Source: Candidatus Omnitrophota bacterium (lineage in GTDB: Bacteria; Omnitrophota; Gorgyraeia; Zapsychrales; Zapsychraceae). From it: a DNA stretch of 64,000 nucleotides. Numbering within the stretch: the first letter of the stretch is position 1; each line of letters starts with the position of its first letter. Positions 1,336 to 45,257 of the stretch are shown here, in pieces. Where the stretch lies: NCBI GenBank assembly GCA_015233115.1, contig JADFYJ010000005.1:86359-150358 (forward strand), read 5' to 3'. Below the pieces are notes generated by a model that had not been told where the DNA came from, made no database searches, and was given only the letters and a program-made list of their open reading frames with translations. A program made the position numbers and the translations under genes.

Positions 1336-1456
1336 ACCGCGTGCCCCATACACAAGGTTTGTGTTTAAACCAAAACACCGAGCGAGTTCAGCTCCGCTTA
1401 GGAGCTGCTGTTTGAGCGAATGATTTGGTTTAAATGCAAACCGCCCTACCGCGCGC
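1336..1456. repeat. structured intergenic repeat, copy 1 (about 120 bp): inverted arms ggtttgtgtttaaacc / ggtttaaatgcaaacc around core gagcgagtt-cagctccgcttaggagctg-ctgtttgagcgaa
   Basis: Near-identical to copy at 38689-38816; related to 7084-7198 and 45176-45257. Confidence 0.85.
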
Positions 1457-1469
1457 TTTATTAAAAATG

Positions 1470-3461
1470 TTATATAATTTGTTTCAATCTATTATAAATT
1501 TTTGCCGCGTCATCAATCGGCCGGGTGATAATTTTTTTCCCAGCCATTTGTGAAAGAATTTCCCCCGTTTGATTGACGTTGGCAGTGACTACATAATTTT
1601 GTTCATTCAACCGGTCCACAAAAATTTCATGCTTAAATCGCTTACGCATAAACGTTTTCTTGAATGTAGGCTTAAATACCAAAGTTGGCTTACCCGATGT
1701 TACAGCTTCGGAAACCATCGATATACTATCGCCGGACACCACTAATAAATCTGCCGCACCCAATATGCCTCCCAGTGCTTCTGTAAAATTATTTTTGCTC
1801 GCGATGACCAGCACCGGACACAGAGCATTGTTCTCCAATTCTTTGAGCAATAACGCTTCCACATCAGCCGCTGTCCGCCGTGATGATGTGACCAGCAATT
1901 TCATTCTCTGTTGACCAGCAAACTGTTTTAACTGCTCCACCAATATCCGGATCTGCTCAAACGTGATTGACATATTTTTGGAATCACCGCCGATCAAAAT
2001 CCCTATTTTTAAACATTTATCCGCTTTCACTTGTGGATAACGTTCGAAAAGTTTTTGCCTCATATCACTCAAATAAGCCGGAGAAATAAGATTTGGTGCC
2101 CCTTGGGTGATCACCACATCTTTATAGGTTTGGCCTATTTTCAAATCATGTTGAGGAAGAATTAACGCATTAAAACATTTAAACCGCATCAAACCAGGAC
2201 GTTGAATGCCAATTCTTTTAGCTCCGGTTTCCTGGGCTAAAACGTAATTGATCCCCGCCATGGAAGACCCGCACGAAATCACATAATCTGCTTTAATTTT
2301 CTCGATTCGGGCATAGACCTCAGGCATCAAGAACGGTTTTAACAAAATAATATACCCTTCCCGAATCAAAGGACTCATTAAAAAAGTAACGAGCGATGCC
2401 CAGCGTGATGCCCAAATATTGCGGAATTTGATTTCACAGATCTCAACCGTTGACTCAATATTTTTTTCTTTCAAACATTGCTGTACTAACCCAGCCACCG
2501 CTTGCGCCTGATGGACATGTCCGGCTTTTCCATCGGATAAAATTACCAGATGAGCCTGGGACGAATGTTTCCAAACTCGATAAGTCCATAAATATTCATG
2601 CGGCCGTGAGCGGATTGAATCTTCCATGGTTTTCACACATAGCCGTAAATTCGTCTCAATATCTTTTTGCAAATCTCCGGTGTTGATCATTTTTATTTCC
2701 GGAAACATCTTAAAATAATTCCGACCATTCTTTAAACGGGTAATACTCACCATACAGACCGGGACATCATATTTAAGCGCCAAACGGACGCCACCCGTCG
2801 ACATAGACGCGGTCCGCCCAAAAAAAGGGACACGAAATCCGTCAGCGCCGCCTTGATCGATTACAATCCCAGTTGAATGGTTGCTTTTGAGCGCTTTAAT
2901 AAAATCTCTCGGCCCCATCCCTGTCGATAACGACACCGCCCCATGTTTGGTTCGGTATTCATTTAACAAAGCATTTAATTTTGGATACCGCTTGTGAGGA
3001 TTAACCATGATTTTATAGCGAAAGCCTAAAAATCCGGCTAACGCACTGGCCAATTCCCAGTTTCCCAAATGCATGGCAAAAAAAAGCAAACCATGGCCGC
3101 GGTCCAGAATTTTTCGAGCCTCTTCAATCCCGTTTATTTCAATCAATTCATGAAAATTTTTTGAATTTAAAATCGGAAAACGCAGAAATTCAATAATATT
3201 TTGTCCGAACTGAATAAAAAAAGCTTTTACGAGCGCATGCAATTCTTTAGGCGTTTTTGTCTCTCCAAAAGCTTGTTTCAAATTGTAATAGCACAACCGA
3301 CGTTTTTTGGAGTTTGTCCAATACGCCACATGGCCCATGCCACGGCCAACTATTAACGCAATTTTAACAGGTAACGCGCAAATAAACGCGGCAAACCCTC
3401 TAATGAGGAAACAACAAAGCGATTCTACCAAGTATTTGATCCTTTCCTTCTGTAACATCAA
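1470..3461 (-). CDS. lpxL: fusion protein: N-terminal lipid A lauroyl/myristoyl acyltransferase (LpxL/HtrB family, about 300 aa) plus C-terminal ELM1/DUF1022-like GT-B-fold domain (about 360 aa)
   Basis: N-terminus has a TM helix then ...FAMHLGNWELASALAGFLGF...IVIDQGGADGFRVPFFGRTASMSTGGVRLALKYDVPV (LPLAT/LpxL motifs). The C-terminal half starts HLVILSDGKAGHVHQAQAVAGLV...KIGILIGGDSKNMS...LLVVSGDSISMVSEAVTSGKPTLVF, as in PF06258-like proteins. Confidence 0.8.
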   Translation of the reverse strand: MMLQKERIKYLVESLCCFLIRGFAAFICALPVKIALIVGRGMGHVAYWTNSKKRRLCYYNLKQAFGETKTPKELHALVKAFFIQFGQNIIEFLRFPILNSKNFHELIEINGIEEARKILDRGHGLLFFAMHLGNWELASALAGFLGFRYKIMVNPHKRYPKLNALLNEYRTKHGAVSLSTGMGPRDFIKALKSNHSTGIVIDQGGADGFRVPFFGRTASMSTGGVRLALKYDVPVCMVSITRLKNGRNYFKMFPEIKMINTGDLQKDIETNLRLCVKTMEDSIRSRPHEYLWTYRVWKHSSQAHLVILSDGKAGHVHQAQAVAGLVQQCLKEKNIESTVEICEIKFRNIWASRWASLVTFLMSPLIREGYIILLKPFLMPEVYARIEKIKADYVISCGSSMAGINYVLAQETGAKRIGIQRPGLMRFKCFNALILPQHDLKIGQTYKDVVITQGAPNLISPAYLSDMRQKLFERYPQVKADKCLKIGILIGGDSKNMSITFEQIRILVEQLKQFAGQQRMKLLVTSSRRTAADVEALLLKELENNALCPVLVIASKNNFTEALGGILGAADLLVVSGDSISMVSEAVTSGKPTLVFKPTFKKTFMRKRFKHEIFVDRLNEQNYVVTANVNQTGEILSQMAGKKIITRPIDDAAKIYNRLKQII

Positions 3462-4479
3462 AACAAATATCCAAAACTAATAATCGGATATCTTCTGACA
3501 AAAATTTCAAAAACAAATTAATTTTAACCGCATCTTTGCGCGTCGTAACTAAAATTTTAATTTTTTCAACATTGCAACCCATGTTCATACTCTTAAAATC
3601 TTCTTCAGTATAAGAATGATGATCGATAAAATGAAACCCTTTAATCACGCAAGCGCCCAACTGCTCTAAAGTATGTTTAAATGAAGTCGGATCCGCGATA
3701 CTGCAAAAATATCCCACCACTTGCCCATTCACAAAATCTATTGAAAAAGAACCAGGATGTCGCACATCATAAAACCCAGCTGGTCTATGCACTCCCTGGC
3801 AAACTAACACACTCGGCCCACTTTCAGAAACGCTTTTAAGCACGCTTTGCGAATTTTTTCTCATTAAATCTGTCTTTGTTAAAACAACGACGTGAGCACG
3901 TTTTAAACTTTTTACTGGTTCACGCAGAATTCCTGATGGAAGTAAAGAGCCATTACCCCAGGGATTCGTCGCGTCAACGGCCACCAAATCAAGATCCCGC
4001 TTTAACTGACGATGTTGAAACCCATCATCAAGAATAAACACATCCGCCGGATGTTCATTTAAATAATTTTTAGCATTCAAATAACGGTTAGGACCGATTA
4101 AAACTGGCACATCTTTTACCATTTGCTGGACCACCTGAGCTTCATCACTTAACACCTTACCGCCGTGATGATCCTTGTCCATATAACCACGCATGAGCAC
4201 CACTGGCTTTAATCCCATGGATTTAAATGTCTCAGCCAGCCATATCGCAATGGGTGTTTTTCCTACACCCCCCACTACAATATTTCCAACTGAAATGACC
4301 GGCCGAGGCAGACGGTAAGTTGGCATAAGCCCCGCGTCAAACAGCCCATTACGTGCCTTGATAATTAAACCGTATAAAATCGATAACACAAATAAAAACA
4401 AAACCAAAATAGTCGGCACAATCCCGCGTTTTTCCCCTCGCATCACTGTCCAAAAATATATCTTTAATTTCTCATTCAT
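3400..4479 (-). CDS. lpxK: tetraacyldisaccharide 4'-kinase
   Basis: VISVGNIVVGGVGKTPIAIWLAETF... P-loop and LpxK family similarity across the full length. Its 3' end overlaps the start of the downstream fused gene by 62 nt. Confidence 0.9.
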   Translation of the reverse strand: MNEKLKIYFWTVMRGEKRGIVPTILVLFLFVLSILYGLIIKARNGLFDAGLMPTYRLPRPVISVGNIVVGGVGKTPIAIWLAETFKSMGLKPVVLMRGYMDKDHHGGKVLSDEAQVVQQMVKDVPVLIGPNRYLNAKNYLNEHPADVFILDDGFQHRQLKRDLDLVAVDATNPWGNGSLLPSGILREPVKSLKRAHVVVLTKTDLMRKNSQSVLKSVSESGPSVLVCQGVHRPAGFYDVRHPGSFSIDFVNGQVVGYFCSIADPTSFKHTLEQLGACVIKGFHFIDHHSYTEEDFKSMNMGCNVEKIKILVTTRKDAVKINLFLKFLSEDIRLLVLDICFDVTEGKDQILGRIALLFPH

Positions 4480-4496
4480 AATAGTCCAATTTTATA

Positions 4497-4565
4497 AGCA
4501 TGTAGCATATAGCATGTGGCATGTAGTGAAAACTTGCTACATGCCACATGCTATATGCTATTGCA
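4497..4565. repeat. paired repeat-array element (TACATGC/TAGCATG 7-mer type), compact palindrome between kdtA stop and lpxK start
   Basis: agcatgtagcatatagcatgtggcatgtag-tgaaaacttg-ctacatgccacatgctatatgctattgc. Confidence 0.85.
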
Positions 4566-5823: not shown

Positions 5824-5837
5824 AAAATTCCTAAGCT

Positions 5838-6107: not shown

Positions 6108-6112
6108 TTTTT

Positions 6113-7083: not shown

Positions 7084-7198
7084 TAGGGCCGTACAAACGC
7101 CACATTGCAATCAAATCCCAGAGCGAGTTTCCGTGGCGCCTCGCCACGGTTGTTTGAGCGAAGGATTTGATTGCAATGTGGCCGCAATAGGCCCACGT
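7084..7198. repeat. structured intergenic repeat, variant copy: 20-bp perfect inverted arms gccacattgcaatcaaatcc / ggatttgattgcaatgtggc around core cagagcgagtt-tccgtggcgcctcgccacgg-ttgtttgagcgaa
   Basis: Read from sequence between topA stop and xerC start. Confidence 0.8.
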
Positions 7199-7227: not shown

Positions 7228-9210
7228 TTATATTGTCGCACTTTTTTCATCTGCAAGTTTATTTTCTTCCGGCAATTCATTGCTGACATAGGTGCATTTC
7301 GGATACTTGGAACATCCGTAAAACTCACCTTTTTTAGAATGACGCTTGATAATTTCACCTTCTTGGCACGTGGGGCATTTGATTCCAGTCGTATAAGGTT
7401 TAGCGAATTTACATTCCGGAAATCCTGAACAACTTAAGAACCGACCGCGGCGTCCCCACTTGATCACCATTTGCTTACCGCAATCCGGGCAATTCTGGTC
7501 AACATAATGGATAGTTTTTTCCGTATTCGCTTCTGCCAGAACCAATTCTTTCTTGAACGGCTCATAAAAATTCTGGAGCAGTTTTAAATACGTCATGCGG
7601 CCTTCCTCAACTTCATCCAGCTCTTCTTCCATCTGCGCCGTAAAACCTATATCCATAACTTTGGAGAAACGCTCCACAAGAAGATCAATGACTTTCATCC
7701 CCAGATCCGTCGGCGCTAAATAGCCTCCCTTTTCCCGCAAAACATAATTACGCAAAACTATGGTTTGAATAATCGCCGCGTAAGTACTTGGGCGGCCAAT
7801 GCCTTCTTCTTCCAAAGATTTAACCAAACTTGCTTCAGAAAAACGGGGCGGCGGTTTGGTAAAATGCTGAGTCGGCTTCAATTCCATTAAATTCAATTTA
7901 TCCCCTTCAACATAGTGGGAAAAATCCGCTTTACCTTCCTCTTCCTCATTTTGCGGATATACAGTCAAATGTCCGTCAAAAATTAAAGTCGAACCTGAAG
8001 CCGCGAACAAACAATTAGCCGCTTGAATCTCCATCCTGCGATATTGATATTCCGCGGATTCCATCTGACAGCTGACAAAACGATTCCAAATTAATTGATA
8101 TAATTTAAATTGATCGCCATCAAGAAATGACCTCACTTCTTCCGGGGTGCGATAGACATCAGACGGGCGGATAGCCTCATGCGCTTCTTGGGCGGACTTA
8201 CGAGACTTGTAAACATTGGGTGTTTCCGGTAAATATTTTGCGCCATGTTTTTCCCCGATATACGCACGAACACGGGCCACGGCTTCCAGCGACAAATTCA
8301 CAGAATCAGTACGCATGTAGGTAATCAAACCAATCGTCTCTCCACCCAATTCCACACCTTCATACAATTGCTGCGCGAGCAACATAGTTTTTGCCGCATT
8401 GTAGCGTAATTTATTAAATGCTTCTTGCTGTAATGTACTGGTGATAAACGGAGGATTCGGCTTTTTACGGACTGAACGGCTGGAAATACTAGTCACCAAA
8501 TAATCAGACGTCTTTAATTTACCCACCAAATCTTCCGTGATTTGTTGATTGCCTAATTCAAATTTCTCCCCATCAATCTTATCCAAATTCGCCGTTAAAA
8601 TATCCGTACGCCCGATTTTCTGAAGATCAGCGGCGATTTGCCAATATTCTTTAGGATTGAAAGCTAAAATAGAACGTTCCCGCTCCACAATCATTCTAAG
8701 CGCGACAGACTGCACGCGGCCGGCGCTTAGACGTGACCCTATTTTTTTCCACAATAAAGGGCTGATCTGATAACCGACTAATCGGTCTAATACCCGGCGG
8801 GCAACCTGCGCGTCAATTTTTTTATGATCAAAATCGCGCGGATGTTCAAAAGCTTTTAAAACCGCTTCTTTAGTGATTTCCTGAAACGTCACACGGAAAT
8901 TCTTTTTCCCTTCACCCAAATGCTCAACTAAATTCCAACCAATCGCTTCTCCTTCCCGGTCAGGATCAGTCGCGAAATAGATGGTATCAGCGCCTTCAAT
9001 ATCTTTTTTAAGTTTGGTCATGATTTTAGATTTACTACGCACCACGATAAAATGCGGAGCAAAATCATGCTCAAGGTCTATGCCCAAAGTTGATTTCGGC
9101 AAATCAACCAAATGTCCCATCGACGCCACCACTTTAAATTTACTGCCCAAAATTTTATTAATCGTCTTAACTTTAGCCGGAGACTCCACAATCACAATCG
9201 ATTTAGCCAT
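7228..9210 (-). CDS. topA: DNA topoisomerase I
   Basis: TOPRIM N-terminus, active-site region ...TYMRTDS..., C-terminal zinc-ribbon repeats (CPDCGKQMVIKWGRRGRFLSCSGFPECKF; CPTCQEGEIIKRHSKKGEFYGCSKYPKC). Confidence 0.93.
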   Translation of the reverse strand: MAKSIVIVESPAKVKTINKILGSKFKVVASMGHLVDLPKSTLGIDLEHDFAPHFIVVRSKSKIMTKLKKDIEGADTIYFATDPDREGEAIGWNLVEHLGEGKKNFRVTFQEITKEAVLKAFEHPRDFDHKKIDAQVARRVLDRLVGYQISPLLWKKIGSRLSAGRVQSVALRMIVERERSILAFNPKEYWQIAADLQKIGRTDILTANLDKIDGEKFELGNQQITEDLVGKLKTSDYLVTSISSRSVRKKPNPPFITSTLQQEAFNKLRYNAAKTMLLAQQLYEGVELGGETIGLITYMRTDSVNLSLEAVARVRAYIGEKHGAKYLPETPNVYKSRKSAQEAHEAIRPSDVYRTPEEVRSFLDGDQFKLYQLIWNRFVSCQMESAEYQYRRMEIQAANCLFAASGSTLIFDGHLTVYPQNEEEEGKADFSHYVEGDKLNLMELKPTQHFTKPPPRFSEASLVKSLEEEGIGRPSTYAAIIQTIVLRNYVLREKGGYLAPTDLGMKVIDLLVERFSKVMDIGFTAQMEEELDEVEEGRMTYLKLLQNFYEPFKKELVLAEANTEKTIHYVDQNCPDCGKQMVIKWGRRGRFLSCSGFPECKFAKPYTTGIKCPTCQEGEIIKRHSKKGEFYGCSKYPKCTYVSNELPEENKLADEKSATI

Positions 9211-10857: not shown

Positions 10858-10929
10858 ATATTTGAATCCCCTTAATTTTTAATTTTTAAATCATAACACA
10901 TTATTTGATATTTTGTCAAATTCGAATTT

Positions 10930-11030
10930 AAAAACAAATTTAAACTCGAATTTGAAATCGGAGAATTCTTATCATAATTTAAAAACAAATTTAAACTCGA
11001 ATTTGAATTCAAAGAATTCTTATCATAATT
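10930..11030. repeat. tandem direct duplication of a roughly 50-bp unit (2 copies) in the aroK / pilin divergent promoter region
   Basis: aaaaacaaatttaaactcgaatttgaaatcggagaattcttatcataatt then aaaaacaaatttaaactcgaatttgaattcaaagaattcttatcataatt. Each unit contains the palindrome aaattcgaattt. Confidence 0.85.
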
Positions 11031-11122
11031 AAAATACACATTTGATTTCAAATGGTTTTGACACTCAACTTATAATATGCCATACTTTAATTAAGCGAAA
11101 CAAAAACTTTGAGGAAATTAAT

Positions 11123-11554
11123 ATGAAAAATACTAAAGGCTTTACTTTAATGGAATTAATGATTGTAGTTATAGTGATTGGCGTCCTTGCCGCGGTCGCA
11201 TTGCCCAGCTTCAATCGAGTCACAGAAATCAGCCGCGCCCAACATGGTATTGATTGGCTTAGAAACGCTTATGGAGCCCAAAGAGCTTTTTTTGTTGCAA
11301 ATGACATCTATACCGGTGCCTTTGCTGATCTTGATGTGGATCTTCTTTATACCGTAAATAATTTCTCCGCAAAAAGTGTAGGGGTGACTGCTACCTCTTG
11401 CGCTTCGATTACCAGAGATGCGGCGTCTGGTTTTGGCTATGGGTTAACCATGAATTGCACAACTGGCTTAATCACTTGCACGGCTGGGGCTGGAGGCACT
11501 GCTGCTGCTGACGCTATAATTTGTGGTCTACTGGGCCACGGAAGTCCTTTTTAA
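11123..11554 (+). CDS. type IV pilin / pseudopilin (prepilin-type N-terminal cleavage/methylation domain)
   Basis: MKNTKG|FTLMELMIVVIVIGVLAAVALP class III signal peptide (G/FTLxE), RBS gaggaaa upstream. Cys-rich C-terminus. The upstream M of the ORF track is rejected. This is the only plus-strand gene in the first 29 kb. Confidence 0.85.
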   Translation: MKNTKGFTLMELMIVVIVIGVLAAVALPSFNRVTEISRAQHGIDWLRNAYGAQRAFFVANDIYTGAFADLDVDLLYTVNNFSAKSVGVTATSCASITRDAASGFGYGLTMNCTTGLITCTAGAGGTAAADAIICGLLGHGSPF

Positions 11555-15176: not shown

Positions 15177-15182
15177 GCGCTT

Positions 15183-15215
15183 GCCACATACCACATGCTA
15201 CATGCTACATGCTAT
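15183..15215. repeat. half element: R arm only (TACATGC type), directly after ilvC stop; a core-like catcaatcgttttt lies at 14998-15011
   Basis: gccacataccacatgctacatgctacatgctat. Confidence 0.7.
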
Positions 15216-16207: not shown

Positions 16208-16237
16208 ACTGTGTCCTTTCCGTGTTCAAATTTTAAA

Positions 16238-16350
16238 AGTAACAAAGTGACAAAGTAACAGAGTAACAAAGAAACAACAAAAAACGAACGTTTTTTTGCA
16301 TCAATCGCTTTTGTCTCTGTCACTCGGTTACTTGGTTACTCGGTTACTTT
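16238..16350. repeat. paired repeat-array element (GTAACAGAG 9-mer type): L 16238-16278, palindromic mini-loop aaaaaacgaacgttttttt, core catcaatcgctttt 16299-16312, R 16314-16350
   Basis: Between ahcY stop and ilvC start. Arms are mutual reverse complements. Confidence 0.85.
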
Positions 16351-18965: not shown

Positions 18966-19364
18966 AGTAACAGAGTAACAGAGTAACAGAGTAACAGAGT
19001 AACAGAGTAACAGAGTGACCGAGTAAAAAACTAAAAAAGCGAATGAGTAAAAACGTCTAAGTAACAAAGTAACGACAAACTGAATAAAAAAGCTACTGAG
19101 TAAAAGCAGCTAAGTAATAAAACTCCAAAATAACAACGCTCCAAACTAACAGAAAAAATGAAATTGGTCAAAAAAAATATTATGATTTTTAAAAAGCAAA
19201 AAAACAATAAAAGTTAAAAAAAATTATCTTATTAAACTTACATCGTTTCTCTAACTTACCGCTTTATTCTCATCAATCGCCTTTTCTCACCAATCGCCTT
19301 TTTCTCTGTTACTCTGTTACTCGATTACTTGGTTACTCTTTGCTCTCGGTTACTTTGTCACTCC
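18966..19364. repeat. paired repeat-array element (GTAACAGAG type): L has 6 perfect agtaacaga units plus degenerate copies to about 19110; AT-rich spacer; two core copies (catcaatcgcctttt, caccaatcgccttttt) 19271-19303; R 19304-19364
   Basis: Between the nucleotidyltransferase 3' end and metK start. The R arm supplies the nucleotidyltransferase stop codon. Confidence 0.85.
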
Positions 19365-20110: not shown

Positions 20111-20194
20111 CGGTTTTTAGTTTTTGGTTGTTAGTTGTTGGTTATAAAAACTATCGTTTTTTCCAAAAACCAAAAACCATCAACAATCAACCAT
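20111..20194. repeat. paired repeat-array element (GGTTTTTGGTTGTT type): L 20111-20145, loop aaaaactatcgtttttt, R 20163-20194
   Basis: Between ptsI stop and nucleotidyltransferase start. Confidence 0.85.
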
Positions 20195-20197
20195 GAT

Positions 20198-24228: not shown

Positions 24229-24240
24229 AAAAGATTGTTT

Positions 24241-29576: not shown

Positions 29577-29588
29577 AAAAAAATTTAT

Positions 29589-29700
29589 ACGGTTTTTGGT
29601 TGATGATTTTTAGTTTTTAAAGAAAAGTTTTTTATCAAAAATCGCTTTGCCATCAAGGCCTTTTCTTTGTTACTCTGTTACACTGTTACTCTGTTACTTA
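29589..29700. repeat. hybrid element in the divergent msbA/lpxB region: L arm of GGTTTTTGG type (29589-29618), core caaaaatcgctttgccatcaaggccttttc, R arm of GTAACAGAG type (29667-29700). The two arms are not complementary.
   Basis: Read from sequence. Confidence 0.8.
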
Positions 29701-31926: not shown

Positions 31927-31959
31927 GCAAAATCCTTTCGAAAATCTATAACATTTTTT

Positions 31960-32042
31960 AGTTCATGGTTGTTGGTTTTTAGTTGTTGGGTATAAAATTA
32001 TTCTTTTTTTCCAAAAACCAAAAACTATCAACTATCAACCAT
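31960..32042. repeat. paired repeat-array element (GGTTTTTGG type) between batD stop and batE start; loop aaaattattcttttttt
   Basis: Read from sequence; the R arm abuts the batD stop codon. Confidence 0.85.
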
Positions 32043-33901: not shown

Positions 33902-34882
33902 TTACCAGTCCTTCTCCGGCTGCCCCAAACCTTTGCCCGGATTTAAATTTAGTGTTCCTTTAGGCTCTTCATTATTTTGGTAGTCATTTAACAATGACTG
34001 AGGACTTTTCTGGCTCTGAGGAGCGTTCCCAGAATTTTTATCCTGGTCATTAGAATTATTTTTACCATCATCATTTTTATTTTGATCATTGTTGCCATTT
34101 TTACCATCATTATTATTCTTTTGATCATTGCTGTCACTTTTTCCATCATTATTTTTGTCCTGGTCATTCTTGTCTTTTTTGTCATCCTTATTTTTATCCT
34201 GGCCATTCCTGTCGTTTTTATCATCCTTATTTTTATCCTCGCCATTCTGATCCTGCTGACTTTTATCCTTCCCGCCACCATTACTCCCACCGCCACCACC
34301 TCCGCCTCCGCCTCCACCTCCCCCTCCACCGCCGCCACCTGAATCACGCTCACAAGACCCATCCTCGTTCCAATATTTAGACGGCATCTTCTTTTTTTTG
34401 TTCAACCGTTCAATTTCTTGTGTCATCAAACTTGAATTGTAAACCACGTCCTGATCATGTGGCGCAATCTTTAAAGCTTCCTGATATGATCCGATAGCGT
34501 CATTAACCAATTTTTTCGCGGCATCTAGATCACACCCTGCTTCTTTGACACGGGCCATCCGATAAAAAATATTACCGCGATTATAATAAGCCTTTTCCCT
34601 TATTGCAAAATTATCCGATAATAAAGCCTTATCAATATAACTTTTTGATTTATCAAACTCGGAAATTTTGTACAACGCTGTTGCCGTGTTATAATTCGCC
34701 ATGGCAGATTCCGGATCTTTCGCGACCGCGTCTTTGAAATACTCAACCGACTGCTCATACCGCCCCTGCCGATAAAGCTTATTCCCTTTGCGGAGATCCT
34801 TGGTCTCTTCATTGGCAAAAACGTTCACGCTTACACCTGCCAGGAAAAAAAATATTGTGAATATTATAAAATATTGTTTCAT
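33902..34882 (-). CDS. batC: BatC-like secreted TPR protein with 18-residue poly-Gly and an about 120-aa Asp/Lys/Asn-rich repetitive tail
   Basis: SP plus TPRs (YRQGRYEQSVEYFKDAVAKDPESAMANYNTATALYK...), then GGGGGGGGGGGGGGGGGG and DKNKDDKNDRNGQDKNKDDKKDKNDQ... encoded by imperfect tandem DNA repeats. Confidence 0.75.
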   Translation of the reverse strand: MKQYFIIFTIFFFLAGVSVNVFANEETKDLRKGNKLYRQGRYEQSVEYFKDAVAKDPESAMANYNTATALYKISEFDKSKSYIDKALLSDNFAIREKAYYNRGNIFYRMARVKEAGCDLDAAKKLVNDAIGSYQEALKIAPHDQDVVYNSSLMTQEIERLNKKKKMPSKYWNEDGSCERDSGGGGGGGGGGGGGGGGGGSNGGGKDKSQQDQNGEDKNKDDKNDRNGQDKNKDDKKDKNDQDKNNDGKSDSNDQKNNNDGKNGNNDQNKNDDGKNNSNDQDKNSGNAPQSQKSPQSLLNDYQNNEEPKGTLNLNPGKGLGQPEKDW

Positions 34883-36028: not shown

Positions 36029-36127
36029 ATGGTTTTTGGTTGTTGGTTTTTGGTTGTTGGTTTTTAGTTGTTGGTTGTTGAAAACATTCTTTTTTCCAAA
36101 AGCTACAAACCATCAACCATCAACCAT
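36029..36127. repeat. paired repeat-array element (GGTTTTTGGTTGTTGG type, 3.5 units) between batA stop and batB start; loop aaaacattcttttttcc
   Basis: Read from sequence. Confidence 0.85.
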
Positions 36128-36146
36128 AAACTAAAAAAATTTTATC

Positions 36147-37142: not shown

Positions 37143-37752
37143 GAGTCATCGTTTCTCCGACTAATCTCCGTACCAGCGCCATACTCACTTCAGCATCGGT
37201 CACATTTGAATGAAATCGCGCGAATTTAACCATATCACAATGCGTTAAAAAATCCGCCAAATTTTTTCGGTGATCTTCAGTTAACACCGCGCGGGTTTTA
37301 GGCGCTAACAAAAATTCTTCTGTCGTCATTTCTGGCGCGGATATAGAAAACCGCTCTTCAATATATTGCCGTAAAATATCACTTAACTCGGAAAAATATA
37401 TTTTATATCCTTCTCGTTGAGGCAAGCGTTGTTTTTCTAAAGCATCAATCCGCTCAAAAGTTCTTTCCCATAAAGTTTTAGGCACGGCAACCGGTTCTTT
37501 TTTCTTTCTTAAAGAGAATATAACAAAAATAACCCCTCCGATCACGACCAGCAACACAATAATCCAGGGGATAATAGAAGTCACTTCGCCCAAAACCCCC
37601 ACCGTGATCGTCGGCTTAACATCACGAATATCCCCGTCCGGTTGTTGAGCAAAAGATAGACCAGGAATAAGCAAAAGATGAAAAGCTAAAAGAAAACAAT
37701 ATGAAATAATATTTTTTCGCTTCACATTTACCACCTTTATCACCTTTATCAC
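37132..37752 (-). CDS. DUF4381-like small membrane protein of Bat/MoxR operons
   Basis: Signal peptide/TM, second TM, C-terminal ...FLTHCDMVKFARF... Position between DUF58 and batA is typical for DUF4381. Confidence 0.6.
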   Translation of the reverse strand: MIKVIKVVNVKRKNIISYCFLLAFHLLLIPGLSFAQQPDGDIRDVKPTITVGVLGEVTSIIPWIIVLLVVIGGVIFVIFSLRKKKEPVAVPKTLWERTFERIDALEKQRLPQREGYKIYFSELSDILRQYIEERFSISAPEMTTEEFLLAPKTRAVLTEDHRKNLADFLTHCDMVKFARFHSNVTDAEVSMALVRRLVGETMTHGL

Positions 37753-38654
37753 TTCTTATGTGAACGCTTTTTAAAGAAATTTATAATTTCATCAACATAC
37801 GATTTATTCGTGAATATATCAATCATGTCAACCCGCGCGCGTCTTAACATCCTTTCCCTCTCAGTGAACCGTTTAACATTCCAGGCCTGATACTCTTCCC
37901 TGACAGATTGACTACTGCAATCCAAGGTAAAAATTTCTCCGGTTTCCGCGTCTTCTAAATAAACCAATCCCCGGTCCGGTAAATTAAATTCGCGCGGGTC
38001 ATTCAGCGTAATAGCGACGATATCGTGTCGTTTATTGGCGATTGAAATAGTCTTTTGAAGGACTTCAGTTTTTTTGTTTTGGACTTTAGCTGTTTCTGTT
38101 ATGAAATCAGAAATTAAAAAAACAATGGCTTTGCGGGTCATGGTAAGAATTAGGAAATCCAATGCCGCTACAATATCGGTAGTTTTTCCTTGGGGTTCAT
38201 AATATAAAACCTCACGAATGACCCTAAGGACATGACTTCGGCCTTTACGCGGTGGAATAAATTTTTCAACTTTATCGGTAAAAATGATCAACCCGACTTT
38301 ATCATTATTTTGTATCGCGGACAATGCTAACACAGCGGATATTTCTGCTGCGATCTGATTCTTGAGATTATTGACTGATCCAAACCTGAGCGAACGGGAC
38401 ATGTCGACCATGATCATAACCGTTAATTCGCGTTCTTCCACAAATTTTTTTACGTAAGGCTTTCCCGTACGCGCGGTCACATTCCAATCAATGGTCCGTA
38501 TATCATCGCCGATCTGATATTCACGCACCTCGTCAAACTCAATACCCTGCCCTTTAAAAACACTGTGATATTGACCGGCAAAAAGATCCGTGACCAAACG
38601 CGAAGTCTTGATCTCGATCCGACGTATCTTTTTAAATATCTCTTTTGGAATCAT
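37749..38654 (-). CDS. DUF58 protein (vWA-like partner of MoxR)
   Basis: ...GQYHSVFKGQGIEFDEVREYQIGDDIRTIDWNVTARTGKPYVKKFVEERELTVMIMVDMSRSL... Confidence 0.88.
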   Translation of the reverse strand: MIPKEIFKKIRRIEIKTSRLVTDLFAGQYHSVFKGQGIEFDEVREYQIGDDIRTIDWNVTARTGKPYVKKFVEERELTVMIMVDMSRSLRFGSVNNLKNQIAAEISAVLALSAIQNNDKVGLIIFTDKVEKFIPPRKGRSHVLRVIREVLYYEPQGKTTDIVAALDFLILTMTRKAIVFLISDFITETAKVQNKKTEVLQKTISIANKRHDIVAITLNDPREFNLPDRGLVYLEDAETGEIFTLDCSSQSVREEYQAWNVKRFTERERMLRRARVDMIDIFTNKSYVDEIINFFKKRSHKK

Positions 38655-38688: not shown

Positions 38689-38816
38689 ACCGCGTGCCCA
38701 ACCTCAAGGTTTGTGTTTAAACTGAATCACCGAGCGAGTTCAGCTCCGCTTAGGAGCTGCTGTTTGAGCGAATGATTTGGTTTAAATGCAAACCGCCTAA
38801 CCGCGCGCTTTACTGG
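38689..38816. repeat. structured intergenic repeat, copy 2 (full length)
   Basis: ccgcgtgcccaacctcaaggtttgtgtttaaactgaatcaccgagcgagttcagctccgcttaggagctgctgtttgagcgaatgatttggtttaaatgcaaaccgcctaaccgcgcgc between moxR stop and DUF58 start. Confidence 0.85.
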
Positions 38817-38840: not shown

Positions 38841-39838
38841 TTATGGAACCGGCACTTCATTAAAAATTCGCGTCACCACATCTTCAGAAGTTTTTTCTTC
38901 CGCTTCAGCTTCATACGTGACAATCACGCGGTGGCGCAAAACATCCATTCCAATAGACTTCACATCCTGCGGAGTCACATAGCCTCTGCCCTGCAAAAAA
39001 GCATACGCTTTCGAAGCAATGGTTAAATTGATCGTGGCGCGCGGAGATCCGCCGTACTGAATCAATCCTTTAAGATCATTTAATTTGTATTTTTCCGGAT
39101 AACGGGTCGCGTCGACGATATCCACAATATATTTCTGCACTTTATCATCCACATAAATATCATCGACGACACTGCGGGCGCGTAAGATCTGCTCCGGCGT
39201 CATGATCGGCAACACCTCAATCGTGTGGGATGTAAAACTCATTCTTTTGAGAATTTCCAATTCTTCTTCTTTTGTAGGATACGTCAGCTTGACTTTAAGC
39301 ATGAAACGGTCAACTTGTGCTTCAGGTAATCGATAAGTACCTTCTTGTTCAATGGGGTTCTGAGTCGCCAATACCATAAATAGATCGTCTAACTTCATGG
39401 TGTTGTTGCCCAGGGTAATTTGACGTTCCTGCATAGATTCGAGTAAGGCACTCTGAACTTTAGCCGGAGCACGGTTAATTTCGTCAGCCAAAATCAAATT
39501 TCCAAATAAAGGACCTTTTTGTATCCTAAATTCCGTAGTTCTCTGGTCATAAATCAAAGTTCCAGTCAAATCAGCTGGAAGCATATCCGGAGTAAATTGA
39601 ATACGCTGAAATTTTGCTTGAATCGTTGACGCGAGAGTTTTAACAGCCGTTGTTTTGGCCAAGCCCGGTACGCTTTCAATCAGCACATGCCCATTCGCCA
39701 TTAATCCAACCAACAGACGGTCCAACAAATAACTTTGCCCAACAATAACCTTTTGACACTCAGACAAAATTTTTCTGACAAACGCGCTTTCATGCCGCAC
39801 CTTCTCATTTAATGCCGTGATATCCATAAAAGACATAT
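38841..39838 (-). CDS. moxR: MoxR-family AAA+ ATPase
   Basis: VIVGQSYLLDRLLVGLMANGHVLIESVPGLAKTTAVKTLAS...FMVLATQNPIEQEGTYRLPEAQVDRF. ATG at 39838. The longer ORF-track N-terminus runs into a repeat arm. Confidence 0.9.
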
Positions 39839-39852
39839 ACGTTCTCCTTTTA

Positions 39853-40134
39853 AATAGTAACCGAGTAACAAAGCAACCGCGTAACAAAAAAACAGAACAA
39901 CATCGTAATATTTTGACAATACAAAAACATTAAATTTTAAAAAAATAAAACATAGATATGACGTTACCAATAAAATATTTAATAAAACGAATAAAAGTTA
40001 AAAAATATATTTTCAAAATATTTTCAAATAAATAACATAATTTTATTATTGCGATATCATCAACGCCTTACCAACATCGCTTTACCATCAAGCGCTTTTT
40101 CTCTGTTACTCTGTTACTCGGTTACTTTGTTACG
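39853..40134. repeat. paired repeat-array element (GTAACAGAG type): L 39853-39896, AT-rich spacer, triple core 40058-40101, R 40102-40134
   Basis: Between the stop of the 1095-aa gene and moxR start. Confidence 0.8.
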
Positions 40135-40136
40135 TA

Positions 40137-43100
40137 TTAATTAAAAAATACATCAACCCGTTCTACTTTACGGGAACGAATATCTAGTGCATATGGAGCA
40201 GTGAGCACCCCTGATTCTACAACGATCGGCTTTTTATTATTCATATACGTCAAATGGACTTCTTTAATTACAACCCGGTCTTTCCCATAGGTATTTTTTC
40301 TGCCCGGATTATGATATACCACGATCATGGATCCAAACAATGTAAACGCGTACGCATTTTTAGGAATTTCCACCATCCGCTGGTGGTTTAAACTGTCAAT
40401 ATAAGTCATCTCAGTTTTTTGTTCAGTAAAAATCCAACCCGGTAAAGCAGGACTAAATTCTAGCACTAAACCTTTTTTATTGTCAAGATAGAATGGTTTT
40501 TTTCCAACATTCATTAACATCCAAATATGCAGGAACTCCGCCGTGCTCCCCGATAAACGCGCCACAAACCCCTGGCCATGAAGATTAATATCTTGATGGG
40601 CGCTCGAAACCAAAAAGGATGAATTTTCCAAAATACTACGGCCATATACCTCCGGCTTCATAAAAGGCACCAACACCTGTTTAAAATTAGCGTAAAAATC
40701 ATCCGCTAAATCACAGCGCAATAACTCCAGCATCAACTTGTATTCCATATGTAGCCAGACGGATTCATTTTCGAGCCAACCAGCGGGAAAGACCCGGGAA
40801 CGTCCAATATCCGTCGAGCTGGAAGACAAATCCGCGTTCACTTTATACATCTTCAATTTTTTATCAAACAGGTCACTGCGTCGGACATCCTCATATAATT
40901 TCCGGGCTGAGTCACCTACTCCCTCTGTTCTTAACGCATGCACATAGCCTTCTAAAAACAAAGGCAGCCGGTGTAATTCAAATTTTTTGGGCCGAATTAA
41001 TTTTTTAGTTTTATCGATCAGCTCATATTCCTTAACTTCATGAAAAAAGTAAGTGGATAAAAATCCTTTTTCATCTTTTGCCAATTCAACGGCTTTAGTG
41101 GTCTTTGTTACAACCGCATTCAAAAAAGTCTTGATTTCTTTTAAAGTCATTTCCTGCTCATGACCTTGAATACCCTTGCGGACTTTCCCACGATAATGCT
41201 CTTTAATATCATTCGCTTTGGTCCAAAACGCCAAGGGGTTTGGTTCTAGTGATAACACATTTGTCAAACCTGAAATAAATGTGGCCAGCTCTTCGAAAAC
41301 CGTCACTTTGACTGTATCCGCTATACTTAACTCATTCACCGCATTGATTAAAAATTGCGCGAAGCGTTTGACTTCATAGGTCTCGCAGATTGATGAACCT
41401 AATAAGCCCGGCAAACCATTTAACGAATCGTACCAACTCGGTTTATCTGCCTCCATTTCAATTCCTATGTTACTAGGATCTAACGTCGCAACTTTATTGG
41501 CTAACAGGCAAAGCATTTTTACAAACAAATTAGTGCGATAAACAACACCGCCCCCATTCATAGTTTTGATCTTATGTTCAGCGACATCGCCGACTTCAGA
41601 CACTCCACCTTTGGCCACAGACGAATACTGCCTGACCCCTTTATCTGTCAGCACGTATCGTTTATCTCTAGGCAAAACATAGTGATCACTATGATAAAAA
41701 GAAAATTCTTTTCGATCAAACAAAACACCTTTGAGATCTTCCGGGTAAACACTCAAATAACTTTCAACCAAATCAAGATTATAAGCCCAATGGTCAATCC
41801 AAAATCCTTCGCCATGGTCAGCCATTTCATTTTTATGGCAAACTTCAAGAACCTTACCTAAAAATTCTTTTTTGTCGACGGTCAACTGAATATGATGCAG
41901 ATAAATAAACCGGAGAAGCTCTCCTGGTAAAAAAGATTTTTTTAGAAATTCGAGTAACTTCTCCTGATCCGAAGGCGCAGCGCTTCCGGCTAACACCGTC
42001 TTTATTTTTTCAACATCATTAACCAAAAAAGTCGTCCCTTTAATGATCAAAGGATTATAACCATCCGGCTGGATCAAATTAAGAAAATTCACCAAATGGC
42101 TGTCTTTAATGTCCGTGTTAAACCATACATCATTCCTGCGATTCTGGTTCACATCGCGGTAATTACCATTTCCCTGAGAATAAAATGTCGACGCCACAAA
42201 AAAATAATTATAATCACGTTCTAGATCACCATGTTTCCGGCTATAGACGTTGAAAGCCACGTCTCCGTCCGTTGTTTTTAAAGAAACGGGCAATCCGCCT
42301 CGTAAAATATTATCCAAAAATGTGTGCTGGCTATAAAGATCAAATTCAAGAGATGAGCTTTTGGTCAACGCGAAATTTTTTATCTGATCAATGAGCTCTT
42401 TATTCCGTGCGGCTTTTTGACTGATAAAATTTTCTCCTCCCACAACCTGCTGAACAATGCTGTTTAATTGCCCAACTTCATGAGCATATCCAAACAGAGA
42501 ACTAATCGTTTGTTCTCCTCCCGGTTCAATGACCGTGACCCAATGACTCATCGCCGACGGAGTCCGGTTGGCAGTCTGTTGTACCTCTGGAACTTTAAAA
42601 TCAGCCTTTAAAAATTCCGCGGGCGCGATGAAATCGTTACAATGATCAAATACAATGGCTGACTCAACCAAAGGCGGCAACAATACATTTTTCCCGCTTT
42701 CATTTTTAAAGCTAAAAAAGAAATTCCCTTCTTTAATCTCATTAACTTCCGGACGGTCTGCCACTTCCACATTCAAATGATAATAAGGTGCTTTATTGTC
42801 TAAATTTTGCACTTTCACCCAAGCCTCAACCGTACGGCACATATTTTTACTAACCCAATCATTAATCCCATACGGAATAATAACCGGCAAACCATCCACC
42901 ACTTCGATTTCGCGGCGCCTTGAACCCGTATTTTGAATGGTAACCCGGCGGACTAAACCAGCAAACGGCTCTTCCGGCAGTGTAAAATAATTAACTGTTA
43001 CAGTCATCTCCAAATCTTCATTTTTTTCAATGAGTGTCAAATCATGGGCCGTTATCGACATGGTCTGCGTGGTTTTATAATCCGTCCCTGGTAAAAAAGT

Positions 43101-43424
43101 CTGGAAAGGTTCCCAATAAATAGTTTTATCCGCATCTTTAATTTTAATAAAAGTTCGGAAGCCTTGCAACGAAGTCAGACGGTAAGATTTATTCGCGGGC
43201 TGAAATTCCATGATCGCTTTGTCTTTTGATTCAATCCCAAAACTAGCGATCCCCTGTCCGCGGTTGGTATAAAAAACCCACATCGGAATTCCCCAAAGTC
43301 CGGAAATTCCTGGGAAAAAATTACTGAAAGTTTTACTAAAATTATAATTTTCAATCAAAAAACTGCCATTATCCTGGTTTAAAAAATACCGTGCAGTTCT
43401 ATTCTGTTTGATCACTTCACTCAT
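40137..43424 (-). CDS. large (about 1095 aa) cytoplasmic protein, probably a glycoside hydrolase/phosphorylase-like enzyme (N-terminal beta-sandwich plus (alpha/alpha)6-type half; possibly GH94-like). Function unassigned.
   Basis: No signal peptide. Start MSEVIKQNRTARYF with RBS aagggcgaagg. Motifs YRDVNQNRRNDVWF and GFWIDHWAYNLDL. Size is comparable to 1,2-beta-oligoglucan phosphorylases. Family assignment is weak. Confidence 0.45.
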   Translation of the reverse strand: MSEVIKQNRTARYFLNQDNGSFLIENYNFSKTFSNFFPGISGLWGIPMWVFYTNRGQGIASFGIESKDKAIMEFQPANKSYRLTSLQGFRTFIKIKDADKTIYWEPFQTFLPGTDYKTTQTMSITAHDLTLIEKNEDLEMTVTVNYFTLPEEPFAGLVRRVTIQNTGSRRREIEVVDGLPVIIPYGINDWVSKNMCRTVEAWVKVQNLDNKAPYYHLNVEVADRPEVNEIKEGNFFFSFKNESGKNVLLPPLVESAIVFDHCNDFIAPAEFLKADFKVPEVQQTANRTPSAMSHWVTVIEPGGEQTISSLFGYAHEVGQLNSIVQQVVGGENFISQKAARNKELIDQIKNFALTKSSSLEFDLYSQHTFLDNILRGGLPVSLKTTDGDVAFNVYSRKHGDLERDYNYFFVASTFYSQGNGNYRDVNQNRRNDVWFNTDIKDSHLVNFLNLIQPDGYNPLIIKGTTFLVNDVEKIKTVLAGSAAPSDQEKLLEFLKKSFLPGELLRFIYLHHIQLTVDKKEFLGKVLEVCHKNEMADHGEGFWIDHWAYNLDLVESYLSVYPEDLKGVLFDRKEFSFYHSDHYVLPRDKRYVLTDKGVRQYSSVAKGGVSEVGDVAEHKIKTMNGGGVVYRTNLFVKMLCLLANKVATLDPSNIGIEMEADKPSWYDSLNGLPGLLGSSICETYEVKRFAQFLINAVNELSIADTVKVTVFEELATFISGLTNVLSLEPNPLAFWTKANDIKEHYRGKVRKGIQGHEQEMTLKEIKTFLNAVVTKTTKAVELAKDEKGFLSTYFFHEVKEYELIDKTKKLIRPKKFELHRLPLFLEGYVHALRTEGVGDSARKLYEDVRRSDLFDKKLKMYKVNADLSSSSTDIGRSRVFPAGWLENESVWLHMEYKLMLELLRCDLADDFYANFKQVLVPFMKPEVYGRSILENSSFLVSSAHQDINLHGQGFVARLSGSTAEFLHIWMLMNVGKKPFYLDNKKGLVLEFSPALPGWIFTEQKTEMTYIDSLNHQRMVEIPKNAYAFTLFGSMIVVYHNPGRKNTYGKDRVVIKEVHLTYMNNKKPIVVESGVLTAPYALDIRSRKVERVDVFFN

Positions 43425-43446
43425 CCTTCGCCCTTTCACTGTTATC

Positions 43447-44229
43447 TTAATTTGGATTCTTAAGCATTCTGAAATAATTATAATATCCGGACAATTTAAC
43501 AACCATTTCAACAGGAGTATGGTCACGGCTGCTTAAACGGATTCTTTTCAATTCATACACATCATGATTAAAGCGGTCTGATCCCCGATTAGTCGCGAAC
43601 GCGGCCTTAAACCCCGCTTCTTGAGTCATACGTTTGATCGGATCGCTAAACCCTCCTATAGGATAAGCCAGAAAATTTATCGGCGCTCCTAAACGCTCTT
43701 CAATTATCTTCTTGCTTTCAAAAATTTCCCGACGTTGTCCAGCAATATCAAAATCCAGTAAATACGCGTGACTAACGGTATGGCTTCCAAAAGCAATGCC
43801 ATTTTTAGCCATTTCCCTGATGTTAGATTCAGATAAAAAACTTTTGTTTTCAAACGCGGACGCGATCAAAAAAATGGTAGCCGGAATTTTATATTTTTTC
43901 AAAATCGGATAAGCATATTGATAATTATTATAGTTTCCATCATCAAAAGTGATGGCCACTGTATTATGCGGCATCTTGCTCCCCGCCTTGATCCTGTCGA
44001 CTAATTCAGTTAAAGTAATGACATTATAATGATGCTTGCGGAGAAAAGACATCTGCCAATCAAATTCTTCTGGAGAAACCCAATTGGGCGCTTGATGATC
44101 CAACACCTCAACATTGTGATACATCAAAACCGGGACAGTATATTGATCCCAAACCCAAATAAAAAATCCGCATACAGAAATAAATAATACGGCAATCCCC
44201 AACAAAATAATTTTAACTACTTTTTTCAT
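43447..44229 (-). CDS. polysaccharide deacetylase (NodB homology, CE4) with N-terminal membrane anchor
   Basis: MKKVVKIILLGIAVLFI... then ...AITFDDGNYNNYQYAYPILKKYKIPATIFLI...GSHTVSHAYL... Confidence 0.85.
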   Translation of the reverse strand: MKKVVKIILLGIAVLFISVCGFFIWVWDQYTVPVLMYHNVEVLDHQAPNWVSPEEFDWQMSFLRKHHYNVITLTELVDRIKAGSKMPHNTVAITFDDGNYNNYQYAYPILKKYKIPATIFLIASAFENKSFLSESNIREMAKNGIAFGSHTVSHAYLLDFDIAGQRREIFESKKIIEERLGAPINFLAYPIGGFSDPIKRMTQEAGFKAAFATNRGSDRFNHDVYELKRIRLSSRDHTPVEMVVKLSGYYNYFRMLKNPN

Positions 44230-44236
44230 TTTATTC

Positions 44237-44689: not shown

Positions 44690-44705
44690 TTTATACTCCT
44701 TTTAA

Positions 44706-44941
44706 AAGTATGTAGTATGCGGTCTGTCGTATGTAGCAAAAACGATAAAACCGTAAAAAATAAAACCAGAAAAACACGCTTATATTATGCCATAACAACC
44801 GCTGTAAAAAGCGATGACTGATAAAAAAATTTCACAAAAATTTATTCGTTTTTTAATAGATAATTTACTAATTACCCAACAATTAATAGTTTCCCAGTCC
44901 TTCAATTCACACCACATACGACATACGACATACTACATACC
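44706..44941. repeat. paired repeat-array element (TACATAC/TACGAC type): L 44706-44743, AT-rich spacer, R 44908-44941
   Basis: Between DUF167 stop and yqeY start. Confidence 0.75.
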
Positions 44942-45166
44942 ATTTTTAATTTCATTTATATTAATTGTTTTGTTTCGTGATTTCAATCCTTTTATGATCT
45001 CGATATTTGTCTTCCTGACATCATAATAATCCGCTAAAAAATCAATGACTGCTTTATTAGCTTTGCCTTCCACAGCCGGCGCAGTCAAATGTAATTTCAA
45101 CTGTCCATTCTCGTCCTTCAACAAATTCTTTTTAGCACCAGGGGTGACTTTAATATTTATAATCAT
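44933..45166 (-). CDS. DUF167 (YggU/UPF0235) protein
   Basis: MIINIKVTPGAKKNLLKDENGQLKLHLTAPAVEGKANKAVIDFLADYY... The longer ORF-track start would overlap repeat copy 3. Confidence 0.75.
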   Translation of the reverse strand: MIINIKVTPGAKKNLLKDENGQLKLHLTAPAVEGKANKAVIDFLADYYDVRKTNIEIIKGLKSRNKTININEIKNGM

Positions 45167-45175
45167 AAATTTAAT

Positions 45176-45257
45176 CCGCGTGCCCAACACAAGGTTTGTG
45201 TTTAAACCGAATCACCGAGCGCCTGCCTGCCGGCAGGCAGGAGTTCAGCTCCGCTTA
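45176..45257. repeat. structured intergenic repeat, copy 3 (truncated, with inserted palindrome gcctgcctgccggcaggcagg)
   Basis: Shares ccgcgtgcccaacacaaggtttgtgtttaaaccgaatcaccgagcg...agttcagctccgctta; ends at the ygjP stop codon. Confidence 0.75.

Follow-up and report, generated by a model that had tools for sequence, protein, structure and literature searches.

Dispersed palindromic repeats, among them repetitive extragenic palindromic (REP) sequences, REPINs and miniature inverted-repeat transposable elements (MITEs), are as a rule confined to one lineage, and it is their conserved stems or termini that define them. A REP is defined by a 5' GTAG/GTGG foot and a family-specific stem, which make up a 20–40 nucleotide (nt) imperfect palindrome; a REPIN is an inverted REP doublet, and the associated RAYT proteins are IS200/IS605-like Y1 HUH transposases, whose genes typically have REPs on their flanks. 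MITEs, such as Correia/NEMIS, ERIC and the PATEs from IS200/IS605, retain the inverted-repeat ends of a parental insertion sequence (IS) and usually show target-site duplications. Integron attC sites carry R''/R' boxes (RYYYAAC / GTTRRRY) at the stem base together with extrahelical bases and occur in cassette arrays next to intI. The non-coding RNA (ncRNA) units of UG27, about 135–167 nt long, carry the motifs AUCN7UANAG / UUYA in an asymmetric internal loop and have a variable central hairpin that is reverse-transcribed; they form tandem arrays in prophages, adjoining a reverse transcriptase and two accessory genes (bioRxiv 10.64898/2026.09.22.753630). Here we analyse a family of hairpin elements with four copies in a 64,000-nt stretch of DNA (the window; contig JADFYJ010000005.1, positions 86,359 to 150,358) from a Candidatus Omnitrophica metagenome-assembled genome (MAG). 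This family reverses the usual pattern: its stems vary, while a 21-base tip is identical in Omnitrophota, Bacillota, Actinomycetota, Pseudomonadota and Planctomycetota.

Each element is a single long non-coding hairpin of about 60–150 nt, laid out as P1 arm, CC, GAGCGAGTT, P2 hairpin, (C)TGTTTGAGCGAA, P1 arm. The P1 arms pair right up to the core, and unpaired bases remain only on the 5' side, where there are two (usually CC). The 21-nt tip core consists of GAGCGAGTT and TGTTTGAGCGAA around the small, variable P2; written as an oligonucleotide with flanks, the tip could read CACC-GAGCGAGTT-TGCGAAGCA-TGTTTGAGCGAA-TG. The first-pass annotation of the window had listed four such elements with a conserved core on variable arms, and all four lie where it had placed them, three complete (copies A–C) and one broken (copy D). 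Its descriptions of the copies were also right, but their numbering was permuted: in coordinate order the first and third copies are near-identical, the second has different arms and the fourth is truncated, whereas the annotation had made the first and second near-identical, the fourth different in its arms and the third truncated.

Copies A and C, of subfamily 1, are 93% identical over 116 nt. Compared with these, copy B (subfamily 2) has a different central hairpin and unrelated arms but an identical core, so that within the window alone the same core sits on two unrelated arm sets. The pattern GAGCGAGTT-N(8–36)-TGTTTGAGCGAA has three matches in the window, all on the + strand (1380–1420, 7121–7162 and 38732–38772), where shuffled sequences lead us to expect 0.00. 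The complete copies fold far better than shuffles, with z-scores of −6.7 to −8.6 (copy B, −8.6). Copy D retains only the left half of an element with an arm of the copy A/C type, and a 20-bp perfect palindrome, CCTGCCTGCCGGCAGGCAGG = CCTGCCTGCC|GGCAGGCAGG, which occurs once in the window, splits its core between GAGCG and AGTT. A solitary left-terminus fragment, AATCCGCGTGCCC (about 13 nt), lies 120 nt upstream of copy A and has the same sequence as the left end of copy D.

The family is not restricted to the window. We scanned one genome per species, and metagenome contigs without taxonomy, for the exact core pattern and obtained 33 genome loci and 45 metagenome loci; about 8 chance matches are expected in the genome collection from base composition. 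Pattern scans combined with a covariance model (12 arm pairs plus the core) gave 55 true copies with scores of 30.7–74 bits; 49 reach at least 43 bits, and the six weakest are divergent-arm subfamilies and degenerate copies. Pattern matches without complementary arms scored about 28 bits or less. The 55 copies fall into 26 clusters that have unrelated arms and the same core. By record title, the carriers in the genome collection are Omnitrophota (four genomes in addition to the source), Bacillota (Lachnospiraceae and other Clostridia), Actinomycetota (Eggerthellaceae, Acidimicrobiia), Pseudomonadota (Woeseiaceae and other Gammaproteobacteria), Planctomycetota (Phycisphaeraceae) and Bacteroidota; the metagenome sources include human gut. 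The Bacteroidota copy, from one Cytophagales bin, closely resembles the Woeseiaceae copy and may be mis-binned; the tip is present in at least five phyla. Since the source is itself a MAG, an assembly artefact or chance has to be considered, yet the excess of window matches over shuffles, the recovery of copies from independent assemblies across many studies and phyla, and the covariation described below make such an origin practically negligible.

No match to a described family was found in the collections searched. Across the whole window and 19 loci, Rfam 15, which takes in the hammerhead, twister, twister-sister, pistol, hatchet, hairpin and HDV-like ribozymes and STAXI, gave no family at gathering threshold except tRNAs. 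At E values up to 10, single copies and 10 short loci returned only generic miRNA-precursor hairpin matches, far below threshold. The element had no match among plasmids (BLAST) or viral contigs (pattern scan). Of the two outcomes that would have spoken against the first-pass annotation, confinement of the copies to the window was not observed, and a clear match to a known IS or MITE terminus did not appear among these plasmids and viral contigs. Literature searches with the core strings returned only unrelated primers, and the papers on REP/REPIN, RepRanger and UG27 do not contain this motif. The family would fill a gap in RNA and repeat catalogues, and annotation pipelines leave such insertions unexplained.

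What varies in the stems varies in a coordinated way. In the 55 copies the 12 innermost P1 pairs are 91.7% paired, compared with 53.9% in column shuffles and 32–50% in slid controls, and double changes occur at all 12 pairs. Judged from these alignments, P1 is constrained to pair. Counted on the motif strand, there are 53 G-T wobbles to 14 A-C mismatches over all copies, and 15 to 4 when each arm cluster contributes one copy (p = 0.019), which implies that one particular strand is selected to fold. Covariation this strong, with many G-U pairs on one strand only, is also what a structured ncRNA would show. In such a reading the motif strand is transcribed, the internal loop and small hairpin bind a protein, make up the core of a ribozyme or serve a reverse transcriptase as template or signal, and the unit has spread by horizontal transfer. 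Functional RNAs typically combine a variable stem with an internal loop that is purine-rich and conserved, copies from termite gut have a second conserved GA-rich internal loop, and the architecture parallels that of the UG27 ncRNA units (bioRxiv 10.64898/2026.09.22.753630).

Orientation and context do not fit well with transcription. The motif strand is antisense to both neighbouring genes at all four window copies. Across loci, orientation is unbiased relative to genes and to local GC skew (21:16), so that the uniform antisense placement in the window cannot be taken as general; copies in tandem-gene spacers are antisense in 15 cases and sense in 6. At one orthologous gammaproteobacterial site both orientations occur. 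Folding is not tied to transcription or replication. A scan found no conserved promoter in or beside the element, and terminator-like sites are no commoner than in shuffles. The UG27 motifs are absent, no reverse transcriptase or other gene is linked, perfect stems of 20–46 bp are unusual for bacterial RNAs, and many of the 3-bp P2 hairpins have no predicted RNA fold (0.0 kcal/mol). Together with the empty Rfam searches, these observations make a structured ncRNA, the chief competing reading, rather unlikely in our view, and the small structured RNA (terminator or insulator) proposed in the first-pass annotation did not find support. Taken together, the wobble bias, orientation, promoter and terminator scans and P2 favour single-stranded DNA folded during mobilisation over a transcribed RNA.

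The tip itself contains two GAGCGA hexamers, which are direct repeats and can face each other antiparallel in the folded strand. In that arrangement they would form two central G-C pairs with tandem G.A/A.G mismatches on each side. RNAalifold, working from the alignment only, pairs G3-C4' and C4-G3' of the hexamers in 55/55 copies, which is the register that the G.A model needs. Beyond these G-C pairs we infer the G.A geometry from the known d(ATGAGCGAATA) duplex, G.A pairs being invisible to nearest-neighbour models. In 38 of 53 distinct copies P2 contains a C-GNA-G triloop, and all four middle bases occur. P2 has the look of a DNA-type mini-hairpin. As DNA, mini-hairpins of the type d(GCGNAGC) are exceptionally stable, and so is the d(ATGAGCGAATA) duplex, which contains tandem sheared G.A pairs. 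Should the tip indeed use tandem G.A pairs and a GNA triloop to fold, genomes would be making natural use of DNA motifs known mostly from biophysics.

Comparison with relatives indicates that the element is mobile. The closest available relative, GCA_015233195.1, has a protein identity of 80–83%; two stretches of it (loci L034 and L084), 36 kb in all, are collinear with the window. The sites of all three complete copies are empty there, so these copies are lineage-specific insertions, and the covariance model found no match in about 111 kb of syntenic Omnitrophota relatives. Copy C splits the moxR–DUF58 gene pair, an operon-splitting insertion of the kind that goes unexplained in annotation. 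Two other Omnitrophota carry unrelated long-hairpin inserts exactly at this junction, which seems to be a hotspot where hairpins from different families insert. At the moxR–DUF58 site the start-codon context (A/T)ATGA is loosely repeated and no other repeat is seen, the relatives being too diverged for base-exact junctions. For copy D, the closest relatives of the adjoining YgjP-like gene are only about 50% identical, too distant to reconstruct the ancestral spacer. Elsewhere, copies within one genome share arms, several lie at contig ends, and tandem or inverted pairs occur (loci L023, L032 and L063). Gammaproteobacterial syntenic loci hold copies in the same spacer in opposite orientations, and the inversion includes asymmetric arm features; this is either a whole-element inversion or an independent insertion at one site.

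Copies lie 0–90 nt from gene 3' ends, about 16 of them between convergent genes. The window elements likewise start 0–30 nt past the stop codon of the upstream gene, with same-strand genes on both sides, just as first described. In UBA2337 (Omnitrophota) two copies start 10–15 nt past the 3' ends of tRNA-Met and tRNA-Pro, on the opposite strand; at one of these loci part of the core, TTCGCTCAAAC, recurs in inverted orientation 40 nt from the element. Such positions would suit a host-selected 3'-end device, that is a terminator or insulator, or an mRNA 3'-end stabiliser as proposed for REPs, with the conserved tip incidental to the spread. Copy B is followed by GGCCC-TAG-TTTTTTT, with a run of seven T, on the sense strand of the gene, and its P2 followed by TTGTTTG was flagged as terminator-like by our scan. 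Copies A, C and D fail that scan, most copies have no T-run, and a strong terminator within moxR–DUF58 would be polar. A generic hairpin role explains neither the 21-nt invariant tip nor the strand-specific wobble bias, and purifying selection, by sparing only insertions in tolerated places, would lead equally to locations at 3' ends. We consider a 3'-end device improbable, more so than an ncRNA.

Some subfamilies elaborate the basic hairpin. The second internal loop of the termite-gut subfamily, GGTGAGGA / TCCGAGCG(A/C)AAGG, lies lower in the stem, below P1 (consensus 5' G(G/A)TGAGGA, 3' TCCGA(G/A)(C/T)G(A/C)AAGG), and is enclosed by a further variable stem, giving a three-tier hairpin. In the marine-sediment subfamily (11 contigs of Ga0224508 and close copies from other samples) the elements are near-identical and the conserved unit is GAGTGCG...core...CGYGATC, while the outer stems of 6–16 bp are perfectly complementary and different in each copy. 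These copies look as if each were centred in a different palindrome, and ordinary palindromes are present in the same contigs. Elements may insert into the tips of existing palindromes, or fold-back synthesis or template switching may lengthen the arms; the palindrome within the core of copy D may reflect a related event.

To look for a linked gene, open reading frames (ORFs) within 3 kb of 54 loci were compared all against all by BLASTP, and no recurrent family appeared beyond syntenic duplicates; all neighbours that were tested are housekeeping genes. Pfam searches of the tested window ORFs gave no transposase, reverse transcriptase or HUH protein. A RAYT gene was found neither in the window nor as a recurrent neighbour in the 54 loci, and the sole recombinase in the window is the housekeeping xerC. 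The element therefore appears to be non-autonomous. Its cross-phylum tip points to a structure-specific partner protein of very broad host range, which could be found by co-occurrence or phylogenetic profiling.

On balance we regard the element as probably a non-autonomous, REP/MITE-like palindromic mobile element that is recognised by its folded tip, likely as single-stranded DNA, by a trans-acting enzyme. The arms would need only to pair, leaving their sequence free to differ between subfamilies. The folded tip on the motif strand, most likely in single-stranded DNA, would be the recognition site of an enzyme encoded elsewhere in the genome, which would copy or move the element; by analogy, our best guess is an HUH-type single-strand transposase or another structure-specific recombinase. 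New copies would land in intergenic DNA right behind genes or tRNAs, possibly in existing hairpins. What we infer here is that DNA is the molecule that folds, that a mobilising enzyme exists and of what kind, how insertion proceeds and which targets are preferred. It is possible, and we suggest it tentatively, that the tip is the recognition module of an undescribed transposition or recombination system acting on folded single-stranded DNA in at least five phyla or, if the molecule is RNA, a new catalytic or protein-binding motif on a mobile hairpin.

Several points weigh against a mobile single-stranded DNA hairpin. Because no mobilising enzyme was found in the window or the 54 loci, the mechanism rests on analogy, and we saw neither a target-site duplication nor a cleavage motif conserved in the flanks. 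RNA, too, has tandem G.A pairs and GNA triloops, and G-T wobbles are a classical mark of RNA. P2 and whole elements were compared under DNA and RNA nearest-neighbour parameters, and the energies do not tell the two apart, since the parameter sets credit neither GNA triloops nor tandem G.A pairs. An orthologous copy is kept in two gammaproteobacterial species, which could also mean a host-level function, as an ncRNA would have. Gene calls in the fetched loci come from a crude home-made caller. Finally, invariance of the core outside the window is partly by construction, the scans having required an exact core, and only two degenerate copies were seen (L056 1220–1276 and L059 1133–1188); core invariance is independently backed by the identical core on two unrelated arm sets in the window and by the number of armed matches exceeding chance.

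Table 1. Positions of the element copies, their parts and neighbouring genes, of related loci elsewhere and of other repeats in the window. Coordinates are those of the window unless a locus is named.
Feature	Position	Strand	Remarks
Copy A	1336–1460	+	complete, subfamily 1; covariance model 64.4 bits
Copy A, outer stem			CGCGTG/CGCGCG
Copy A, P1 arms	1356–1377 and 1421–1442	+	
Copy A, unpaired CC	1378–1379	+	
Copy A, core 5' half	1380–1388	+	GAGCGAGTT
Copy A, P2 hairpin	1389–1407	+	CAGCTCC-GCTTA-GGAGCTG
Copy A, core 3' half	1409–1420	+	TGTTTGAGCGAA
GT4 glycosyltransferase gene	2–1162	−	neighbour of copy A
lpxL/ELM1	1470–3461	−	neighbour of copy A; stop at 1470, gap 9 nt
Solitary left-terminus fragment	1203–1214	+	AATCCGCGTGCCC
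Copy B	7084–7198	+	complete, subfamily 2, arms unrelated to subfamily 1; 63.8 bits
Copy B, outer stem	7086–7090 and 7190–7194	+	GGGCC / GGCCC
Copy B, P1 arms	7099–7118 and 7163–7182	+	20 perfect pairs
Copy B, unpaired CA (not CC)	7119–7120	+	
Copy B, core halves	7121–7129 and 7151–7162	+	
Copy B, P2 hairpin	7131–7149	+	CCGTGGCG-CCT-CGCCACGG
xerC	6113–about 6991	−	neighbour of copy B
topA	7228–9210	−	neighbour of copy B; stop at 7228, gap 29 nt
Copy C	38689–38812	+	complete, subfamily 1; 64.7 bits
Copy C, P1 arms	38708–38729 and 38773–38794	+	
Copy C, core	38732–38772	+	
DUF58 gene	37749–38654	−	neighbour of copy C in bat/moxR operon
moxR	38841–39887	−	neighbour of copy C in bat/moxR operon; stop at 38841, gap about 28 nt
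Copy D	45176–45257	+	broken, left half only, subfamily 1
Copy D, left terminus and 5' arm	45176–45214	+	
Copy D, GAGCG	45217–45221	+	
Copy D, inserted perfect palindrome	45222–45241		
Copy D, AGTT	45242–45245	+	
Copy D, 5' half of P2 and loop	45246–45257	+	everything 3' of the loop deleted
YgjP-like gene	45255–46019	−	beside copy D
Copy A site (lpxL/ELM1–next gene) in relative	L084		spacer 3 nt; element absent
Copy B site (topA–xerC) in relative	L084		spacer 102 nt, AT-rich; element absent
Copy C site (moxR–DUF58) in relatives	L034; L080		L034 spacer 5 nt; L080 genes overlap; element absent
Unrelated hairpin inserts at moxR–DUF58	L081 9828–10000; L082 9870–10000		173 nt; 131 nt
UBA2337 tRNA-adjacent copies	L027 3823–3974; L029 2473–2631		core fragment TTCGCTCAAAC at L029
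Gammaproteobacterial copies, same spacer	L026 7199–7283 / L046 5562–5646; L042 3150–3240		L042 opposite to L026 / L046
Termite-gut three-tier hairpins	L071 760–930; L064 760–930; L066 340–520; L037 20–190		
Marine-sediment copies	L040, L041, L047, L049, L053, L054, L057, L058, L065, L068, L076		copy-specific outer stems
7–8-mer arrays	4497–4526/5840–5870, 15182–15214, 16236–16348, 18966–19363, 20112–20201, 24240–24324, 24431–24734, 26319–26347, 29578–29698, 31955–32049, 36030–36131, 39843–40133, 44703–44940		
39-nt tandem repeat	34034–34247		5.5 copies; in TPR-protein ORF 33902–34882
51-nt tandem repeat	10918–11043		2.3 copies, 91% match, 12-nt subunits

The neighbours of the window elements are all housekeeping genes (GT4 glycosyltransferase, lpxL/ELM1, xerC, topA, DUF58, moxR, yggU-like and ygjP-like), and all flanking genes are on the minus strand. 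The TAA stop codon of the YgjP-like gene (45255–45257) is the TTA of the copy D loop, and the C-terminus of the protein is intact in comparison with homologues. GC skew on the + strand is very strong and even throughout the window (1–64000; −0.10 to −0.26), and nearly all genes lie on the minus strand. Many intergenic spacers contain short tandem arrays of 7–8-mers in inverted pairs that would form long hairpins of around 100–300 nt, for example (AGTAACAG)n ... (CTCTGTTA)n, (TGGTTGT)n ... (AACCATC)n and (AGCATGT)n ... (TGCTACA)n. An inner block, for instance CGCTTTGCCATCAA-GCTTTT, is common to some of them. The arrays are presumably the array elements mentioned in the first-pass annotation. 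The 39-nt tandem repeat encodes a repetitive low-complexity segment, and the 51-nt repeat lies just upstream of a prepilin-type gene (11042–11554). Two adjacent giant ORFs (49430–54307, 1625 aa, and 54366–63536, 3056 aa) gave Pfam signal only for TPR, CarboxypepD_reg and SpaA-like folds; ORF 40137–43526 (1129 aa) gave no Pfam match.

Known motifs were also compared with the element by eye. A hammerhead was rejected because CUGAUGA/GAAA is absent, the termite-gut flank GAUGAGGA...UCCGAAUGAAA being without U4 and the GAAA register. A canonical k-turn does not fit either, as no register sets a 3-nt bulge against G.A pairs with a paired C-stem, and the likeness of the second termite-gut loop to a hammerhead or a box C/D k-turn is superficial. 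For boxA/nut, GCUC is followed by AAACA and not by UUUAACAA; with the CRISPR I-E repeat only GAGTT is in common. The attC R boxes, parS and dif were likewise checked and rejected.

Among folded and transcribed systems, integron attC sites resemble the element in being structure-recognised as folded single strands, with weak stem conservation, a length of about 60–140 nt and a position directly after ORFs. In contrast to attC, the element has a conserved tip and variable outer ends, and is dispersed among housekeeping genes with no linked integrase. UG27 units share with it a main hairpin, asymmetric loop motifs bracketing a variable central hairpin, and sequence-diverse stems; the element differs in being dispersed and chromosomal, in having other motifs, and in showing no linked reverse transcriptase and no viral-contig match. 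Intrinsic terminators are also hairpins just downstream of genes, a likeness to which copy B adds by passing a simple scan, whereas the element shows no consistent T-run, is oriented independently of the gene upstream and contains a large internal loop that is invariant.

The dispersed repeats come closer. Like MITEs, the elements are small and non-autonomous, with inverted-repeat arms and insertion polymorphism between relatives, and the earlier description of them as MITE-like holds in that they are non-coding, multi-copy, absent at orthologous sites of the closest relative and patchy across phyla. They cannot be classed as classical MITEs: it is the hairpin tip that is conserved and not terminal inverted repeats, termini and arms differ between subfamilies, no direct repeat that could be a target-site duplication flanks copies A–C, and no parent IS is known, the plasmid and viral scans being empty. 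With REPs and REPINs the elements have in common that they are short, non-coding, extragenic palindromes in multiple copies near gene 3' ends or in convergent spacers, without visible target-site duplication, sometimes in clusters or inverted pairs, and with a presumed folded single strand; GCGNAGC tips occur in enterobacterial REPs listed in PMC2817692. The elements differ from REPs in that foot and stem vary while the tip is conserved and is common across phyla, and from REPINs in that the GAGCGA hexamers are direct repeats and not an inverted doublet. We conclude that the family is closest in lifestyle to REP/REPINs and MITEs, yet lacks the GTAG foot and the conserved termini that define them, shows no visible target-site duplication and has no RAYT or IS linked to it in the window or the 54 loci, and that what distinguishes it within dispersed palindromic mobile elements is an invariant, cross-phylum tip on freely varying stems.

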